The notes beneath the pieces were generated by a model, which was not told the DNA's origin, searched no databases, and worked only from the letters and a program-made list of their open reading frames with translations. From a virus (lineage: Duplodnaviria; Heunggongvirae; Uroviricota; Caudoviricetes), in IMG/VR virus record IMGVR_UViG_2718218398_000003: a DNA stretch of 45,775 nucleotides. One strand, given 5' to 3'. This document shows positions 1-7,058 of the stretch, in pieces. A program made the position numbers and the translations under genes. Position 1 is the first letter of the stretch. Each line of letters opens with the position of its first letter.

Positions 1-249
1 ATGGCGGCAGCACAACCGCTGGTATTTGATGCAGAACTGGACACCGTGCGTGGGCGTCTTGGTAGCGTAAAAGGCGTTAATTACGATACGGCGATGTGGA
101 GTTCGGCAATTAACAGCCGCAACAACGTGACCACTGATGCAGGCGCTGGCTTTGAGCAAACATTGACGGGGCTAACGCTTGGTATCGACAGCCGTTTCTC
201 CCGTGAAGAAAGCAGCACAACTCAGGCGGGTGTGGTCTGGACGTTCTGA
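1..249 (+). CDS. C-terminal fragment of an autotransporter-type outer membrane protein (5' end outside window); host flank
   Basis: ORF runs in from the window edge and ends ...SSTTQAGVVWTF*, the aromatic-terminal beta-barrel signature of type V autotransporters. It lies outside the prophage boundary marked by the tRNA-Pro fragment. From memory the E. coli proL neighbourhood has an autotransporter gene (yejO); not verified. Confidence 0.5.
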   Translation: MAAAQPLVFDAELDTVRGRLGSVKGVNYDTAMWSSAINSRNNVTTDAGAGFEQTLTGLTLGIDSRFSREESSTTQAGVVWTF

Positions 250-350
250 TAACAGAAAATAAACAGGCCGTGATGTGTCGCGGTCTGTTTATCGAATTAA
301 ATGCAGATATAAAAAAACCAACCGCAATAGGTTGGTTTTCTTGGGATTTT

Positions 351-396
351 TGGTCGGCACGAGAGGATTTGAACCTCCGACCCCCGACACCCCATG
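351..396 (-). other. tRNA-Pro 3' fragment (anticodon loop to CCA, 46 nt); probable prophage attachment core (attL)
   Basis: Reverse complement reads CATGGGGTGTCGGGGGTCGGAGGTTCAAATCCTCTCGTGCCGACCA, with T-loop GGTTCAAATCC, 3' acceptor strand and CCA, matching my recollection of E. coli tRNA-Pro(GGG). The upstream 30 nt (397-427) do not supply a complementary 5' acceptor strand (CGGCACG) or a D-arm, so this is not a complete tRNA gene. Confidence 0.7.
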
Positions 397-611
397 TCAC
401 CGCGCCTGAAACGCTGGAGACCGCGCCATTGCTGGGCTGGCAGGGTGTTTCACTGTGTGCGCAAACAGTGCATAATTCGCAAAATTCACGCTATATACAT
501 CAATGAGTTAAGAGAGATTTTTCCCCACTCCTAAATGGTCAGTTTTTGGAGCATTACTATATTAATAGGTTCCGTCTATAGCACTTTTTGATTTGCTTCT
601 AATATGCTTTT

Positions 612-638
612 CTGTGGATAAGATTTAGTTATCCACAG
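612..638. promoter_or_regulatory. perfect inverted pair of consensus DnaA-box 9-mers (TGTGGATAA / TTATCCACA)
   Basis: CTGTGGATAA-gatttag-TTATCCACAG: 10-bp perfect inverted repeat whose arms are the consensus DnaA box, in an AT-rich region about 200 bp upstream of the 835 ORF. Confidence 0.5.
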
Positions 639-834
639 ACTTATCTCCTAAGTTTCCGAGCAGCTACATGTTTTTTGTTGATTGTTTTATGTTTGGCGTA
701 AAGTCAACAATTACTTCGCTTTTTGACCATTTTAGCCCATTGGAAATTACGATCATCTTCATGTAACCTTCTAAAACTTACTAAGATTGCAGAAGTTAAA
801 GCAACATAGCTCGTAGTTTCTTAAAGGTGATTTA

Positions 835-1602
835 ATGCCACAGCCGGCGCTAAAAGCGAACGAAATCAGCAGTGAATTAATCGATATTCTTGCGGCTCGG
901 AATACGATATCCGAAATGCAATATTTTCGTTATATCAGAGATATAGAAAAGTTGCGCGACAGCGCATCTGAGGACTATCTCAAAGCGTTGGCTAATGGTG
1001 CTTTTGGGCGTAAAGATACTGCAGTTGCATTCTTTGAAGAAGCATTGAAGCATAACAACCTGATCATTGCTCAAAATTATGTAGTTTATCTCAACGATTA
1101 CGGCAGCTTCCGTGAAGTTGAACAAGTGGTAAATCGATTAGTTGAACGTTATAACTCCCCTACGATGCTGTCCCATGCATGGGAAGCTAACTTGTTCTTG
1201 GGGCGTATTGACAAAGCGCTCTACTATGCTGAGAGATTGATAAGTATGGTAGATGAAAAGGAGGCTGAATTGGTTAAGCACCTCGCAGCCACAGCACTGG
1301 CCCAATCCACGACCTTCAAAAGTGCAACTGGAATTACTGATGAAGAACTACAGGATATTGCAAACCGCATAGTGGATATCATGGCTGACCATAAAGTTAG
1401 TCCTGTTGCTATGTCTTTCTGCTCTATCCCTGAAGAGCGTACGTCATCATATGTCATGGCAGTTAATACTGAAGATTCTGATGTTCTCTCTGATATGAAC
1501 TTGGATATAGCATTTTCTCTTGCAGAAAATGAAAGTTTGATTGGAAAACCCTTCAGCGTATGGTTTGAAGGGCGTTTGGAGGAACCTGCGCGTGCCAGTT
1601 AA
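835..1602 (+). CDS. hypothetical protein (255 aa), first gene of att-proximal cargo operon
   Basis: ATG preceded by AGGTGA at 5-nt spacing; 255 codons; predicted mostly helical; no recognised motif; AT-rich relative to phage core. Confidence 0.55.
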   Translation: MPQPALKANEISSELIDILAARNTISEMQYFRYIRDIEKLRDSASEDYLKALANGAFGRKDTAVAFFEEALKHNNLIIAQNYVVYLNDYGSFREVEQVVNRLVERYNSPTMLSHAWEANLFLGRIDKALYYAERLISMVDEKEAELVKHLAATALAQSTTFKSATGITDEELQDIANRIVDIMADHKVSPVAMSFCSIPEERTSSYVMAVNTEDSDVLSDMNLDIAFSLAENESLIGKPFSVWFEGRLEEPARAS

Positions 1603-1975
1603 TAGTTCCGATTTTATCGCTTTCGCAAAAGATTGTGAAAAGCGTAACGACGAAATTGGTTACAGAAACGCTGTCGCACGTGCGTATTATGGTGCTTATC
1701 ACCACGTACTTCCGTGTTTGACCATGGGGCCGAAAGAAAGTCACCAAGGCCTCATTGACTATCTTGTTAACGATGCTTGGAAGGGTAACGAACCTTTTGA
1801 AAAAAGAGACTTAATTGGTTTGGGGTATGCTCTTCAATCGCTTAAGGATCAGAGAATAGTTTGTGATTACAGACTTAACGACACTATTACGCCAACCCAA
1901 TCAAGCACCGCGATTAAGACTGCAGAGAAATTAATCCAGCGTTGCGCTAATATGACCAAGTCTAAAGCGTCCTAA
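1592..1975 (+). CDS. HEPN-like small protein (about 127 aa), second gene of cargo operon
   Basis: Track ORF 1541..1975 begins at a TTG; an in-frame GTG at 1592 with GGAGG 9 nt upstream overlaps the stop of the upstream gene (1600-1602) and is the more likely start. Sequence ...YRNAVARAYYGAYHHVLPCLTMGPKESHQGLIDYL... resembles classical HEPN-domain signatures (recalled, not searched). Confidence 0.5.
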   Translation: MPVNSSDFIAFAKDCEKRNDEIGYRNAVARAYYGAYHHVLPCLTMGPKESHQGLIDYLVNDAWKGNEPFEKRDLIGLGYALQSLKDQRIVCDYRLNDTITPTQSSTAIKTAEKLIQRCANMTKSKAS

Positions 1976-1980
1976 TCCCC

Positions 1981-2008
1981 AAAATTGGCCTCATTTGAGG
2001 CCAATTTT
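1981..2008. terminator. bidirectional intrinsic terminator
   Basis: AAAA-TTGGCCTCA-tt-TGAGGCCAA-TTTT: perfect 9-bp stem flanked by A and T runs, directly after the stop of the 1975 ORF. Confidence 0.8.
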
Positions 2009-2044
2009 ATTATGCATTGTATTTAATTTCACCGTGCGGAAGCA

Positions 2045-2400
2045 TTACCCAATCATATGGTTCCGCGTATAAATTTTCGTTGATTTCGCGTCGCTGTGGG
2101 CTATGAGCCCTTGTGGTCTACTCCCTGTTTATCAAACAAAATGCAGCTAGTGCGCGTATTTTGTGGAATGTGGGGGCGCAGCTCCATCGTCAAATTATTA
2201 CACAAGCCTAACGAATCACGGGGCAATGAAAAGTATGGCTAAGATAGGCAGGTGCGGATACCTCTTTACTGCGTTTGTTATTACGCTCGGTATACGGTGA
2301 ACGATATACGGGCAGGCAACGTTATCGCGACTGTTATCAATAATACGTTTCAGTTTGTCCTCGAACTACATCACAACCGGCTTGAAAACTAATTACTGGA
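2045..2400 (-). pseudogene. 3' remnant of a tyrosine integrase gene (paralogous to the intact int at 3553-4737)
   Basis: Minus-strand translation ending at stop 2045-2047 gives ...QGLIAHSDAKSTKIYTRNHMIG*, clearly homologous to the intact integrase C-terminus ...QGRMAHSDAKSTKIYTKNHIDW...; nucleotide similarity to 3560-3950 continues to about 2400. No intact ORF of 60 aa or more is listed here, so it is degraded. Confidence 0.65.
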
Positions 2401-2458
2401 TTTTGTGCCTCCATAATCATATGATTTAAAATGTTATTTTATAAAAAAGGAGTTGTAT

Positions 2459-3415
2459 ATGACCAATTTGTATAAGTTTATGGGAGCGGATATAATTGAT
2501 AAATTGATGATGGATGAAACACATATAGGAATAAAATTCTCTCATTTACATGAATATAATGATCCCTATGAGTTTTTCCTTACTATTGATTTTAATCGCG
2601 GTTCTGATGAGTTAGCATTTTACAATGAAATGATTGGCATGGTTACAAAACAACCAGCAACTTGTTTTACGAAAAGCCCTGTGATACCACCTATGTGGGC
2701 ACATTATGCAGGTAATTCTTCTGGTTTTGTAATAGAGATTAATGAGGAGAAGTTTAAAAAGTATTTGGATGAAATCGGCTTCCAGGATCATAGTTCAATA
2801 GCAGATGTTGAATATAAAGATTCTCCAGATACAGGTATTGAAGACATTCTGGCGAGAGCATTTCATATCTGTAAACCTCGTTATATCTACTGGCTACAAT
2901 CCTGTATAATGACAGCCGCATATTTGACAAAACAAACTTGCTGGAGTTATGAGCAGGAACGTCGCGTAATAATTAATGAGAAAGCACTTACTAAACTGAA
3001 TGACAATCTTATGCTCCTTCCGGTACCGATTAATTGTATAACTGGAGTTATAGTTGGGCACAAATCAAATGATTTATTAAAGCAGAAAATTCAATCTTTA
3101 GCTAAAAAGGCTAAATGTAGATATTTCGAAATGGTAATAGGAAAAACAACAACTACACCATTTCTTTTATCTCAAAATCTCAAATCACACCAATTTATTA
3201 ATGGCAATATAATACCTGCATCAAGGCAATGTAAAAAATGTTATGAGCCTTTAAACATGGAAAATAAAGTTTGTGGCTGGTGTGGAATTACTAATCATGA
3301 TGTGAAAATGGCAGAGTACCGTAATTCATTTCGAATGATAGCCAACTATGGTGGGCTGGATAAATATATATCATCCATGAATAAGATTACTGAAGAGTAT
3401 AATAAGGGTAAATAA
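2459..3415 (+). CDS. DUF2971-like protein with C-terminal CxxC...CxxC zinc ribbon (318 aa)
   Basis: ATG at 2459 with AAGGAG 6 nt upstream (track start 2453 is a TTG). N-terminal ...LYKFMGADIIDKLMMDETHIGIKFSHLHEYNDPYEFF... and later ...PMWAHYAGNSSGFVIEI... and ...CWSYEQERRVI... fit my recollection of the DUF2971 family; C-terminus has CKKCYEPLNMENKVCGWCG. Very AT-rich. Confidence 0.6.
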   Translation: MTNLYKFMGADIIDKLMMDETHIGIKFSHLHEYNDPYEFFLTIDFNRGSDELAFYNEMIGMVTKQPATCFTKSPVIPPMWAHYAGNSSGFVIEINEEKFKKYLDEIGFQDHSSIADVEYKDSPDTGIEDILARAFHICKPRYIYWLQSCIMTAAYLTKQTCWSYEQERRVIINEKALTKLNDNLMLLPVPINCITGVIVGHKSNDLLKQKIQSLAKKAKCRYFEMVIGKTTTTPFLLSQNLKSHQFINGNIIPASRQCKKCYEPLNMENKVCGWCGITNHDVKMAEYRNSFRMIANYGGLDKYISSMNKITEEYNKGK

Positions 3416-3552
3416 ATTTTATTAATAAATATTGCTTTCTGGACAAGGGAGAAGTTATGGTAAATGGGCATAGAACTGCCTTTTAAATTAAGCTTTACTC
3501 TATGCCTTAGCAACCGTTATTGTCAGTCAAAATAAAGTGGAGAATTTAATAA

Positions 3553-4737
3553 CTAACCGGTTTTAATTTCTCCATGAGGGACAACAATCCAATCTATATG
3601 ATTTTTAGTATAAATTTTAGTAGATTTCGCATCGCTATGTGCCATTCGTCCCTGCGGATCAATCCCTTGTTTATCAAATAGGTGAGCTGCCAAAGCTCTT
3701 ATTTCATGGAATGTAGGTCTTTGTTCCATTGCTAGATGATTGCATAGTCCGAGTTTGTCTCGCACGGAAGAGAATGACCGACTCAAATAATCTGGTGCAA
3801 CTTGAGTTGGGTGCGAAACCTCTTTACTGCGTTTAACATGCCGTTCTGGGATTCTATGAACGACAAAGGGACTGGCCACATTGTCACGGCTATTGTCAAT
3901 TATCCGTTTCAATTCTTCACCAATTGGTATTGCAACATGTGATGCCTCCTTTTTTTGTACTTTTTGCCTATGGATGTATAGTGTACCATATATGCCATTT
4001 TGTGGTTGTTCGAACCAAACACATCCACATAAACCGTCTTTAGGTTCGCGAATTGAGTAACGGATTCGCGATACTTCGAGTCGTGCATGTGTAGTCTGCA
4101 ATGCTAGGTCCATTGCTGTTCTTAACCATGGTGCAGCGGCCTGCCTGATAGCTATAAAATGCTCGAGTGACAGGCGCCGTCTTTTCTTCTCATCAGTCCT
4201 ACGCATTTTTTTTCTGATGGCCGGGTTATCCTGCATTAGTGATTCATCGACCGCATAAGAGAACAACTTTTTAAGAAAGCTGACCTTTCTGTTCTGCACA
4301 TTTGCGGATGCGCTGGCATGATATTTGTTGATGTAGGCATTAACGTGTTCAAGTTCGATATCGCATGCCGGAACATTTACGAAAAACGCTTTTACGCGTA
4401 GAGCGTCATTTTTCCAGTCATCTAAGGTACTCTGGGAAGGTCGTTCGTCTTCGATAATTCTGGCCATTATGTGATCGACATGTTCAGCAAATGGTTTTGC
4501 TTCTCCGGTGACCCCGCCAGATTCTCTAATAAGATTATCCACTGATGGGTATAATTCTGATCGCATCCTCAGGTTGTACTCTCTGGCGATTGCAACGGCT
4601 ATTGCCCGATCCTTACCTATATTTTTCTTTTTTCCGGTAATAAGTGTGAATTTATAAACACCTCGATCTTTATCAAAAACCAGATAATCAGGAAGATGTC
4701 TGTATTCTTTTTTACGTGGCCTTGCCGCCATGGTCAT
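3553..4737 (-). CDS. int: tyrosine site-specific integrase
   Basis: 394 aa; C-terminal catalytic region with ...HEIRALAAHLF...RMAHSDAKSTKIY... (conserved H, R and Tyr nucleophile of lambda-family integrases); adjacent to excisionase. Confidence 0.93.
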   Translation of the reverse strand: MTMAARPRKKEYRHLPDYLVFDKDRGVYKFTLITGKKKNIGKDRAIAVAIAREYNLRMRSELYPSVDNLIRESGGVTGEAKPFAEHVDHIMARIIEDERPSQSTLDDWKNDALRVKAFFVNVPACDIELEHVNAYINKYHASASANVQNRKVSFLKKLFSYAVDESLMQDNPAIRKKMRRTDEKKRRRLSLEHFIAIRQAAAPWLRTAMDLALQTTHARLEVSRIRYSIREPKDGLCGCVWFEQPQNGIYGTLYIHRQKVQKKEASHVAIPIGEELKRIIDNSRDNVASPFVVHRIPERHVKRSKEVSHPTQVAPDYLSRSFSSVRDKLGLCNHLAMEQRPTFHEIRALAAHLFDKQGIDPQGRMAHSDAKSTKIYTKNHIDWIVVPHGEIKTG

Positions 4738-4943
4738 CCCTCATTTATTAACTTGCGAACAGCTTGACTAACCATTGAGTCGACTCCCCATTTTTCTGTT
4801 TCGCAGACAAAAACAGAACCGTCCACGATACGCCCCATGAGCAGACCGTTCTCGACCCAGCGTTTTATCGTTCGGTTGTCAGGAATTGAGCCATTAGAGA
4901 ATTCACGGCGTCCCCATTGGCTCGCTTTCATTAGTTTTGCCAT
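4734..4943 (-). CDS. xis: excisionase (Xis/AlpA-like)
   Basis: Small basic protein ...RTIKRWVENGLLMGRIVDGSVFV... directly upstream of and overlapping int. Start placed at internal ATG (MAKLMKASQW) with GGAG 8 nt upstream; track ORF extends to 4988. Confidence 0.7.
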   Translation of the reverse strand: MAKLMKASQWGRREFSNGSIPDNRTIKRWVENGLLMGRIVDGSVFVCETEKWGVDSMVSQAVRKLINEG

Positions 4944-5004
4944 GGCTGTTTCTCCACTTAACCCGCTGCACACGGGCAGTAATATCAAATTTCAGTCCTG
5001 ATAA

Positions 5005-5220
5005 TTAATTTTGTTCTCTGGTTGCTACCTGTTTAATTGGCCTGATGCTGTCCAGGAGCAGTCGGCGGCGCGTATTTTCTGCAAAGTGGCGGCGTCCGGT
5101 TTCTTTGTGGTAAAACTCGTTTTCTCCGACGACCCACATCCGCTTTGTCTGGTGCAGTTTTTTTACCTGCGGACCGTTTCGGGTAATAACAATTCCTGTA
5201 TGAGTTTTTATCACGCTCAT
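5005..5220 (-). CDS. small hypothetical phage protein (71 aa)
   Basis: ORF in the early-left operon, same strand as neighbours, abutting the downstream gene; no recognised motif. Confidence 0.45.
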   Translation of the reverse strand: MSVIKTHTGIVITRNGPQVKKLHQTKRMWVVGENEFYHKETGRRHFAENTRRRLLLDSIRPIKQVATREQN

Positions 5221-5579
5221 TTCTTATTCTCCGGTGCTTTCGGCATTACTGCCCAGTGAGTGATATTGACGTTTTCAAGGTCCCCGACCTGAAATGTCCA
5301 CTGCCATTCTCCGGTTTCTTTTTGTCCCCAGGTGTACCAGAGAGAACGCCAGCCAATTAGCCAGCCTTCTCCGTTAGCATCAAATAACAGAACACTTTCA
5401 TTTGCAGGTGGCAGTTCAGCTGACACTGGTATTATTTTGTTTTCCAGTGCCGCACATTTAGCTTCAAGCGCGTCGAATTTACGTACTAGGTACTCAGCAT
5501 TTGTTTCGTTCACTTTCAGATCTCGCGGTACACATTTCCCGCGAAGAAACCCTTCCATTTCGAAAACATTCATGCGCAT
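5217..5579 (-). CDS. DUF551-like phage protein
   Basis: 120 aa; C-terminal ...WQWTFQVGDLENVNITHWAVMPKAPE resembles the DUF551 signature common in lambdoid early-left regions (recalled). Confidence 0.65.
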   Translation of the reverse strand: MRMNVFEMEGFLRGKCVPRDLKVNETNAEYLVRKFDALEAKCAALENKIIPVSAELPPANESVLLFDANGEGWLIGWRSLWYTWGQKETGEWQWTFQVGDLENVNITHWAVMPKAPENKK

Positions 5580-6106: not shown

Positions 6107-6233
6107 TTTGTTCTCCACGTATATGCGCTGCACCGCGCTGAATTTTGGTTAAAGAAAACCCTCGCCATCAGGCGATTATTGAGTTAATTACGTTTCCATA
6201 AATGCCCCCGCAGGGGCATTTGCAGTAATGAAA

Positions 6234-7058
6234 TCAGGCGGTGAAAGTACCAATAAAGGTTTCTACTTTGCTGTCTTTGAATTTTTCAACAAGCAGATCA
6301 CGAAATTCGTTAGCCATTTCTTCCTGTACTGCTTCCAGCTGAATAATGCGCAGAACCAGTACAGGGCGATCACCAGTGATAATGCTGAGGCGTAATTTAA
6401 ACGGACGTTCTTTCAGGCCTTCAAACGGAACGCATTTAAACTCAAATGCTACTGGCATAATGTCTTTGGTTTTCGCTTCGACAGACTCCATCAGAGAGCG
6501 TTTGCCGCTGAAGTCATTGTCTTCAAAATCAGCGGTCTGGTTTGCTTCAATCGTGATTTTACGGACCGCCGCAGCCGCTTTTGTTGCCTGAATGGCGTCA
6601 CCATTAGCATCAAAGCCCACAAGGTAGTCGGCCCAGTCTTCAATCCATTCTGCCAGTGACTTCTGGGAGTTACGCTCGCCGTTAACAGACAACAGGGCAG
6701 AGAACGGTGCTGTCTTTTTCAGTTTGAGAGTGGCGGTGTTATCTGCGTGACCTGGTTCATCAATAGTACCCAGGTTAAGCACACTGACGGCTCGCATATT
6801 ATCAGCATCGATAAAGCAGCGGGTGCCTTCATCTGCAAGATCTTTAGAATAACGGGTAAAGTCATCGATGCTGGCAGTGGAAAGCGCACCACGGAAACGG
6901 AAGCGATTTAAATTAAATTTTTCCAGATCATGAATGCGGAAATTCTCAGGCAATGCCACAGCATCGGCACCAATCTTACTGATAATTTCATTAACACCCT
7001 GAGCAGAAATAAGGGCATGGATTTGATTAATTGCGGTTGCGTCTAAGTTCTGAGACAT
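6234..7058 (-). CDS. DUF2303/YfdQ-like phage protein
   Basis: 274 aa; resembles my recollection of the CPS-53 yfdQ product in sequence and length; function unknown. Confidence 0.7.

Follow-up and report, generated by a model that had tools for sequence, protein, structure and literature searches.

The left end of a prophage of Escherichia coli raises the question of how the decayed 3′ end of an integrase gene (int) came to lie between two blocks of cargo genes in an element that also carries an intact int. An initial annotation, made from the sequence alone, described this region as a degraded second copy of the int 3′ end, and offered two explanations for it: an older element at the same tRNA-Pro site, or recombination within int that brought in a gene for a DUF2971 protein. 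The DNA in which it was found, called here the window, is the whole stretch of 45,775 nucleotides of IMG/VR virus record IMGVR_UViG_2718218398_000003.

The window contains nearly the whole of a lambdoid prophage, about 47 kb long and inserted in the tRNA-Pro gene proL, because a copy of the tRNA-Pro 3′ end is found at its left and an intact proL lies beyond its right end. In E. coli CCUG 73778 (NZ_CP041337.1), this intact proL adjoins yejM, 1.47 kb past the window's right end, and ARAGORN found no whole tRNA anywhere in the window. The left edge of the window falls in yejO, an autotransporter gene, of which it takes in the 3′ end. The left prophage junction is marked by the att core, a 46-bp copy of the proL 3′ end on the minus strand at 351–396, and the same end of the prophage thus holds both the displaced piece of the tRNA and the int gene. 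Over its left 5 kb, the window matches positions 415172–420171 of the CCUG 73778 chromosome with 99.9% identity, and of 5426 complete E. coli genomes, 51 contain this segment at a coverage of at least 80%. The yejO portion (window 1–249) belongs to a pseudogene in the window's strain, with a 630-bp deletion relative to strain DDG206, and the 223 nt of yejO beside this indel are just 94.6% identical to DDG206.

A second att core, for which the initial annotation had proposed a search, does not occur in the window. A pattern search with the 46-bp core, allowing up to 3 mismatches, returned a single match where 0 were expected, and no tRNA-like sequence was found at 2410–2458 or 3416–3552. In the absence of an internal att core, no simple tandem array of two intact elements remains at this site.

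On the phage side of the core, and adjoining it, is the putative P′ arm of attP (397–527), which is conserved whatever the cargo; it is 93% identical in GZM7, 81% in MJ-T, and 79% in both phage Eeyore and the DUF2971-bearing locus L030. It is followed by two overlapping open reading frames on the plus strand that appear to form an operon (835–1975) and for which no Pfam or PADLOC assignment was obtained. The first, cargo1a (835–1602), encodes 255 amino acids (aa; WP_001136067.1, a hypothetical protein according to PGAP), and has weak TPR-like Pfam matches that fall below the curated cut-offs and no PADLOC match. The second, cargo1b (1592–1975), encodes 127 aa (WP_001145023.1 in the PGAP annotation) and is present wherever cargo1a is in related loci. 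Judged by its position, the pair is possibly an uncharacterised defence or toxin–antitoxin unit. The cargo1b product contains an R-x6-H motif, ARAYYGAYH, and the two genes are conserved beside int in elements of Pseudocitrobacter and Enterobacter.

Downstream of cargo1b there is a perfect hairpin of 12–13 bp (1981–2008), with a run of A on one side and a run of T on the other, whose position is colinear with that in the cargo1-bearing loci described below. Its folding energies on the two strands are -17.5 and -18.3 kcal/mol (z = -4.6 and -3.9), and it probably acts as a bidirectional terminator between the convergent cargo1b and former int. To its right are the int remnant, discussed below, and the second cargo block, which consists of a DUF2971 gene of 318 aa on the plus strand (2459–3415). 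The DUF2971 protein matches Pfam PF11185 above the cut-off (E = 1.8e-9) and the PADLOC candidate PDC-S31 (E = 4.9e-22). Members of the DUF2971 family are predicted to be ADP-ribosyltransferase-like (PMC12522546), and Aristaios, a lactococcal antiphage system composed of a single gene, encodes a DUF2971 protein (PMC11381338). The resident int is intact, lies on the minus strand at 3553–4737, and encodes 394 aa with a lambda-type arm-binding N-terminus (Pfam PF09003, above cut-off); it is 100% identical in the 51 genomes. Upstream of it, in the position of an excisionase gene (xis), is a small open reading frame of the conserved phage backbone (minus strand, 4734–4988), which shows 75–85% aa identity beside int in related loci of both layouts described below, and only a weak HTH match.

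Comparison of the resident integrase with the whole window confirms that a degraded int 3′ end lies between the two cargo blocks. By tblastn, the minus strand from 2410 to 2054 matches aa 257–381 (E = 7e-15) and, in another frame, the minus strand from 2309 to 2022 matches aa 293–392 (E = 7e-9), while the rest of the matches in the window have E > 0.9. At the DNA level, blastn returns a segment of 117 nt at 73.5% identity (E = 3e-12) and one of 106 nt at 73.6% (E = 1e-10), and the remnant and int are about 66% identical when aligned globally over about 390 nt. Chance similarity is excluded as an explanation by the E value of 7e-15 in the window and by a colinear match to int in more than 10 independent loci. 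The remark that the region aligns with the int 3′ end, with many substitutions and no long open reading frame, also holds, as the longest frame within the remnant is 48 aa.

The extent of the feature, given initially as 2045–2400, required a slight correction: the feature is real, and tblastn, multiple alignment, translations and the PGAP annotation place it on the minus strand from 2010 to about 2410, which corresponds to about aa 257–394 of the integrase family. The peptide quoted in the initial annotation, ...QGLIAHSDAKSTKIYTRNHMIG*, is found in the translation, in a frame that stops through a -1 frameshift; the original reading resumes in another frame as DWVMLPHGEIKYNA*, ending with a TAA at 2010–2012. 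Public annotation agrees with this. In NZ_CP041337.1, PGAP/RefSeq describes window 2010–2359 as "recombinase, frameshifted, incomplete, missing N-terminus" (FMA85_RS26985), and an equal pseudogene call is found in DDG206 and other carriers (about 50 other genomes). In itself, the remnant is ordinary, and it is already annotated as a pseudogene in public E. coli genomes.

The catalytic C-terminal region is still recognizable in the remnant, with the HxxR motif, the second His and the catalytic Tyr. These are more easily read in strain T309.Ta3, which carries the same arrangement in a less decayed state and where the remnant reads ...RPTFHEIRALAAFLFDKQGVDPQG..AHSDAKSTKIYTRNHIDW... across two frames; in the window, the same motifs are spread over three. 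The part before about aa 257, which is the N-terminal two-thirds of the integrase, is absent. Consequently, the remnant has no start, no arm-binding or core-binding domain and no box I Arg, and does not qualify as a functional integrase. From these features, 2010 to about 2410 can be assigned to a pseudogene remnant of a tyrosine recombinase (phage integrase).

The origin of the remnant becomes clearer when related prophages at tRNA-Pro are compared, as had been suggested initially, since the layouts cargo1–int and DUF2971–int are each found separately. Searches with cargo1a reveal a layout, called here type A, which consists of attP, cargo1a, cargo1b, an intact int and the xis-position gene, without DUF2971 or a remnant. 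It occurs in IMG/VR loci L017, L018, L019 and L022, where cargo1a has 93–94% aa identity, and in loci from Pseudocitrobacter faecalis (L010/L020) and Enterobacter wuhouensis (L011/L023). Searches with the DUF2971 protein reveal a second layout, type B, which consists of attP, DUF2971 and int, without cargo1 or a remnant (L029–L031). In L030, for instance, the arm (22–87) is followed by a gap of about 70 bp and then by a segment colinear with window 2444–4977, in which DUF2971 starts at position 175.

The window combines the two, in the order attL, cargo1a/b, the last ~400 nt of a type-A int, DUF2971 and the intact int. Window 309–2355 aligns with L018/L019 in a single colinear blastn alignment of 82–83% identity, which spans the att region, both cargo genes and the hairpin, and enters the int 3′ end. 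This colinearity stops at about 2353–2355 by blastn, with weaker similarity up to about 2410, and similarity to the type-B locus L030 begins at 2418–2444, local alignment suggesting a start at about window 2418. The limits of colinearity thus define a junction zone at 2376–2418, with type-A-derived DNA on its left and type-B-derived DNA on its right. Because both layouts exist and are colinear with the window on either side of this zone, the window is a composite of type A, up to about 2376–2410, and type B, from about 2418. The closest available type-A ints are 72–76% identical to the remnant, type-B loci are about 78% identical to the right-hand part, and overall the sampled loci of the two types are 72–83% identical to the window; they are therefore cousins of the true parents, which are not in the sample.

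In agreement with this, the remnant resembles the ints of other elements more than it resembles the resident one. For the T309.Ta3 remnant, DNA identity is 76% with the 3′ ends of type-A ints versus 68% with the resident int. In addition, both remnants terminate as type-A ints do, with ...GEIKYNA* and then TGAAA/TAAAA and the hairpin, whereas the C-terminus of the resident int is different (...EIKTG*). In a neighbor-joining tree, the remnant is on a long branch whose attachment to the type-A clade is without support. By sequence comparison, the remnant is not a copy of the resident int but descends from the int that first belonged with the left cargo block. The term "second copy" was right, then, in that the remnant is homologous to the int C-terminus, but its source is a type-A int.

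Partial duplication of the resident int in situ, followed by divergence, would explain why the two sequences share orientation and gene family and are 1.5 kb apart. Nevertheless, it is so improbable that it can be practically disregarded, as the remnant is 66–68% identical to the resident int versus 72–76% to ints of other elements, and bears the C-terminus and downstream terminator of those elements. Moreover, the T309.Ta3 copy and the resident int are 73–89% identical in aa but 68% in nt, with mostly synonymous differences. Because aa identity exceeds nt identity, these int genes must have diverged for a long time while functional, before inactivation, which excludes a recent local duplication. 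Replacement of the 3′ end of the resident int itself, with a break near nt 3950, was also considered and was rejected after a chimera test based on sliding identity to the ints of GZM7, MJ-T and Eeyore, since the mosaic steps are elsewhere (at ~4100 against GZM7 and ~4320 against MJ-T). The intact ints are mosaic in their own right: GZM7 is 97–100% identical to the resident int centrally (window ~4140–4440) and 57–88% in the 3′ third.

The remnant is probably a non-functional scar, left by the illegitimate joining of a type-A and a type-B lambdoid phage of the proL family. The process would start from two related proL phages that differed in the cargo located between attP and int. A single non-homologous join would then have connected a site in the type-A int, some 400 nt short of the stop codon, to a point about 40–60 bp upstream of the type-B DUF2971 gene. 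This may have happened by unequal recombination between two co-resident phage genomes or, alternatively, by a deletion in a tandem A–B double lysogen at proL, running from the middle of the type-A int through the hybrid att. In either case, the product would be attL, cargo1a/b, terminator, the 3′ 400 nt of the type-A int, DUF2971, the type-B int and the rest of phage B; it would retain one working int, gain a second cargo module, and then spread as a single prophage. The single-event history and the choice between routes are inferred from the arrangement of the parts. The divergence between window and T309.Ta3 is uneven, being 3–6% left of the junction and 0–2% right of it, so later recombination has overwritten part of this history.

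Recombination within int, one of the two explanations offered initially, thus agrees with what is found, since a breakpoint inside int placed DUF2971 and int beside an older attP–cargo–int module. The other, in which an older element with cargo1 and the type-A int was resident at proL, a later phage integrated beside it, and the remnant is chromosomal debris, leads to the same end product, so the two are not distinct in their outcome. Type-A modules do occur at this att, elements are known to accrete in tandem at tRNA sites, as for instance the ICEs and IMEs of Streptococcus suis (PMC7168690), and a deletion that took the internal att would leave an equal arrangement. As a separate history, it is nevertheless unlikely. 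The internal att core that it would be expected to leave is absent, and the composite behaves as one unit. Cargo1, the remnant and DUF2971 share one distribution, namely a single set of 51 among the 5426 complete E. coli genomes, T309.Ta3, where the junction is that of the window, and 5 IMG/VR proviruses. The exceptions to this joint occurrence are one IS1 deletion derivative and one record cut at its ends. The former is strain J2, where cargo1 and window 2000–2304 (305 bp, most of the remnant) are followed directly by IS1 and then by the right prophage end, so that it is a deletion derivative. Hence, J2 aside, cargo1 and the remnant are never seen without DUF2971 and int, which argues against a left element of older residence.

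The hosts themselves provide further evidence against that history. Carriers are diverse and include ST131, ST167, and avian, porcine and bovine isolates, and the block is at least 99.3% identical among these unrelated hosts. In two of them, identity is 99.8% from window 220 on, versus 94.6% in the adjacent 223 nt of yejO, and the block also lies inside the provirus calls of IMG/VR. From this distribution, the composite would have spread as one prophage unit. It was found in no isolated phage genome, the matches there being cargo-less relatives such as Eeyore and Flotzy and an unannotated record, Phi06_2987 S. That the composite moves as a phage is therefore deduced from its distribution. In T309.Ta3 (L003 7654–8622), a copy of IS903B between DUF2971 and int removes the last ~13 int codons, so that its int matches aa 1–381 only; this prophage is probably unable to excise by itself.

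The comparison with T309.Ta3 also reveals how the remnant has fared since the two variants separated. The T309.Ta3 copy is far less decayed: one frame can be followed for 110 codons, which share 73% aa identity with the resident int, and 27 more codons follow at 89%. Between the two copies there are 42 substitutions in 392 positions (10.7%) and 26 gap columns in 8 indels, which include 15-, 7- and 6-nt deletions. When polarized against intact ints, six frameshifting indels and one 15-nt deletion fall in the window copy, and one 7-nt deletion and one stop in T309.Ta3; a premature stop near the 5′ end of the remnant is common to both. For the neighboring genes, pS between window and T309.Ta3 is 0.085 for cargo1a, 0.111 for cargo1b and 0.069 for DUF2971, with pN of 0.005–0.017, and the flanking genes are 96–98% identical and other non-coding DNA about 94%. 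Because the substitution rate of the remnant equals the synonymous rate of its neighbors, and eight indels have accumulated as well, the remnant is decaying neutrally, without constraint. The 15-nt deletion, seen in the window copy only (2246–2258; L003 ~6215–6245), lies between short GTGC repeats, which read AGTGCA...GGTGCG in T309 and intact ints, and is consistent with a slipped-strand mechanism.

This pattern of decay bears directly on whether the remnant has been kept for a function in cis or as RNA, for instance as a promoter or 5′ leader of DUF2971 or as an antisense RNA modulating int. Read-through from cargo1 could yield an RNA that is antisense to the remnant and partly complementary to the int mRNA at its 3′ end, by a perfect match of 17 nt, ACCTCTTTACTGCGTTT. 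In addition, the DUF2971 start codon is about 50 bp past the remnant and the retained type-B sequence has no convincing promoter, so transcription of DUF2971 may begin in, or cross, the remnant. The remnant has also persisted through about 10% neutral divergence, and three remnants of this int family, two of them in other elements, are similar in length. Such a role is nonetheless very unlikely, considering that substitutions proceed at the neighbors' synonymous rate, that 8 indels separate just two variants, and that type-B phages express DUF2971 without any remnant. In a promoter and terminator scan, promoter-like sites were no more common than in shuffled sequences, and none was found on the plus strand in 2013–2459. 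Similarly, no Rfam family matched at the gathering score; two sub-threshold matches were obtained in 1–5200, one of which is the terminator hairpin.

The remnants in other elements raise a related matter, as all three (that of window/T309, the AR435 type and that of L021), which look independent, lose int homology within ~10 codons of each other, at int aa ~257–267. The breakpoints correspond to ~3935–3965 in the resident int of the window (int aa ~257–267), 5357–5391 in L005 and 7645–7660 in L021, and local alignment compared with shuffles detected no significant int homology upstream of the break in any of them. The AR435-type remnant is found in roughly 46 E. coli genomes, in a block (L005 3030–5391; L035 and L036, ~3000–5391) composed of an attP-like arm, 73.5% identical to window 312–527, SMODS, SLATT and the int 3′ remnant. 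In DEC9B and GN25, this block is in the nin region of other lambdoid prophages, between the replication genes/DUF977 and hokD/Q; in AR435 itself it is placed after the tail-fibre genes, and PSS-08-2 has a piece of it in the Qin region. This att–int end module appears to have moved as a cassette. The IMG/VR locus L021, in turn, has its int remnant after a 63%-identical cargo1 homologue, and in the tree this remnant pairs with an intact int (96% bootstrap) and not with that of AR435.

If the 5′ ends of these remnants were non-random and reflected a recombination hotspot in int, the attP arm, the cargo and the last 400 nt of int would constitute a recurrent portable cassette that stacks defence cargo or moves it between lambdoid phages. 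Under a uniform model, the chance of three breaks within ~30 nt of a 1185-nt gene is roughly 6e-4, a post-hoc figure from n = 3. Yet a hotspot is doubtful at best. Upstream of the break, the AR435 and L021 remnants resemble each other weakly and without colinearity (z of about 3.3), neither has anything in common with the window junction, and no att-like sequence or common mosaic boundary was found at the shared breakpoint. Furthermore, no additional remnant type appears among the 80 IMG/VR sequences most closely related to the int C-terminus, which comprise 73 full-length ints, 5 window-type composites and 2 cut or frameshifted ints.

It would be a mistake to take the remnant for another integrase, att site or element. 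What it marks is the seam between two stacked cargo modules, a two-gene unit and a candidate defence gene of the ADP-ribosyltransferase-like DUF2971 family. As such, it would be a small, clean example of how illegitimate recombination, and not clean replacement, adds cargo to the slot beside int, and its value is chiefly for annotation and interpretation, with no new question raised by it. In general, the slot between the att arm and int (window 397–3552) is, by comparison of related elements, a cargo hotspot of the proL phage family. What lies between the arm (397–527) and int takes at least five forms in these elements: Eeyore has nothing there, GZM7 has two hypothetical genes, MJ-T combines DUF4760 with an ATPase, a hypothetical gene and a transposase remnant, and cargo1a/b or DUF2971 is found elsewhere. 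Among these contents, DUF2971 alone matches a PADLOC candidate (PDC-S31). The mosaicism of the intact ints suggests that homologous exchange may be recurrent here, and that the int 3′ end may travel with the adjacent cargo.

Several aspects of this arrangement are found in known systems. Decaying, 5′-truncated 3′ pieces of recombinase genes inside a prophage, as seen here, are also known among the int pseudogenes of lambdoid prophages in E. coli. For instance, intK/ydfW of the Qin prophage of K-12 is an integrase-fragment pseudogene of a similar kind. In the present case, by contrast, both parental layouts are found and the fragment can be assigned to the left cargo block. The arrangement also resembles the accretion of ICEs, IMEs and CIMEs, in which related elements with the same att specificity are placed side by side and move as one. 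By contrast, the products of accretion retain an internal att; here there is none, and all that is left of the left-hand element is the cargo and 400 nt of int. Finally, temperate phages and satellites, such as P2 and P4, carry hotspots of variable cargo and defence genes at fixed positions (Rousset et al. 2022, PMC9122126), and the proL phages are like them in that a conserved slot holds varying cargo. They differ in that this slot belongs to a lambdoid family at proL and that, instead of a clean replacement, two cargo sets have been stacked around the scar of a gene.
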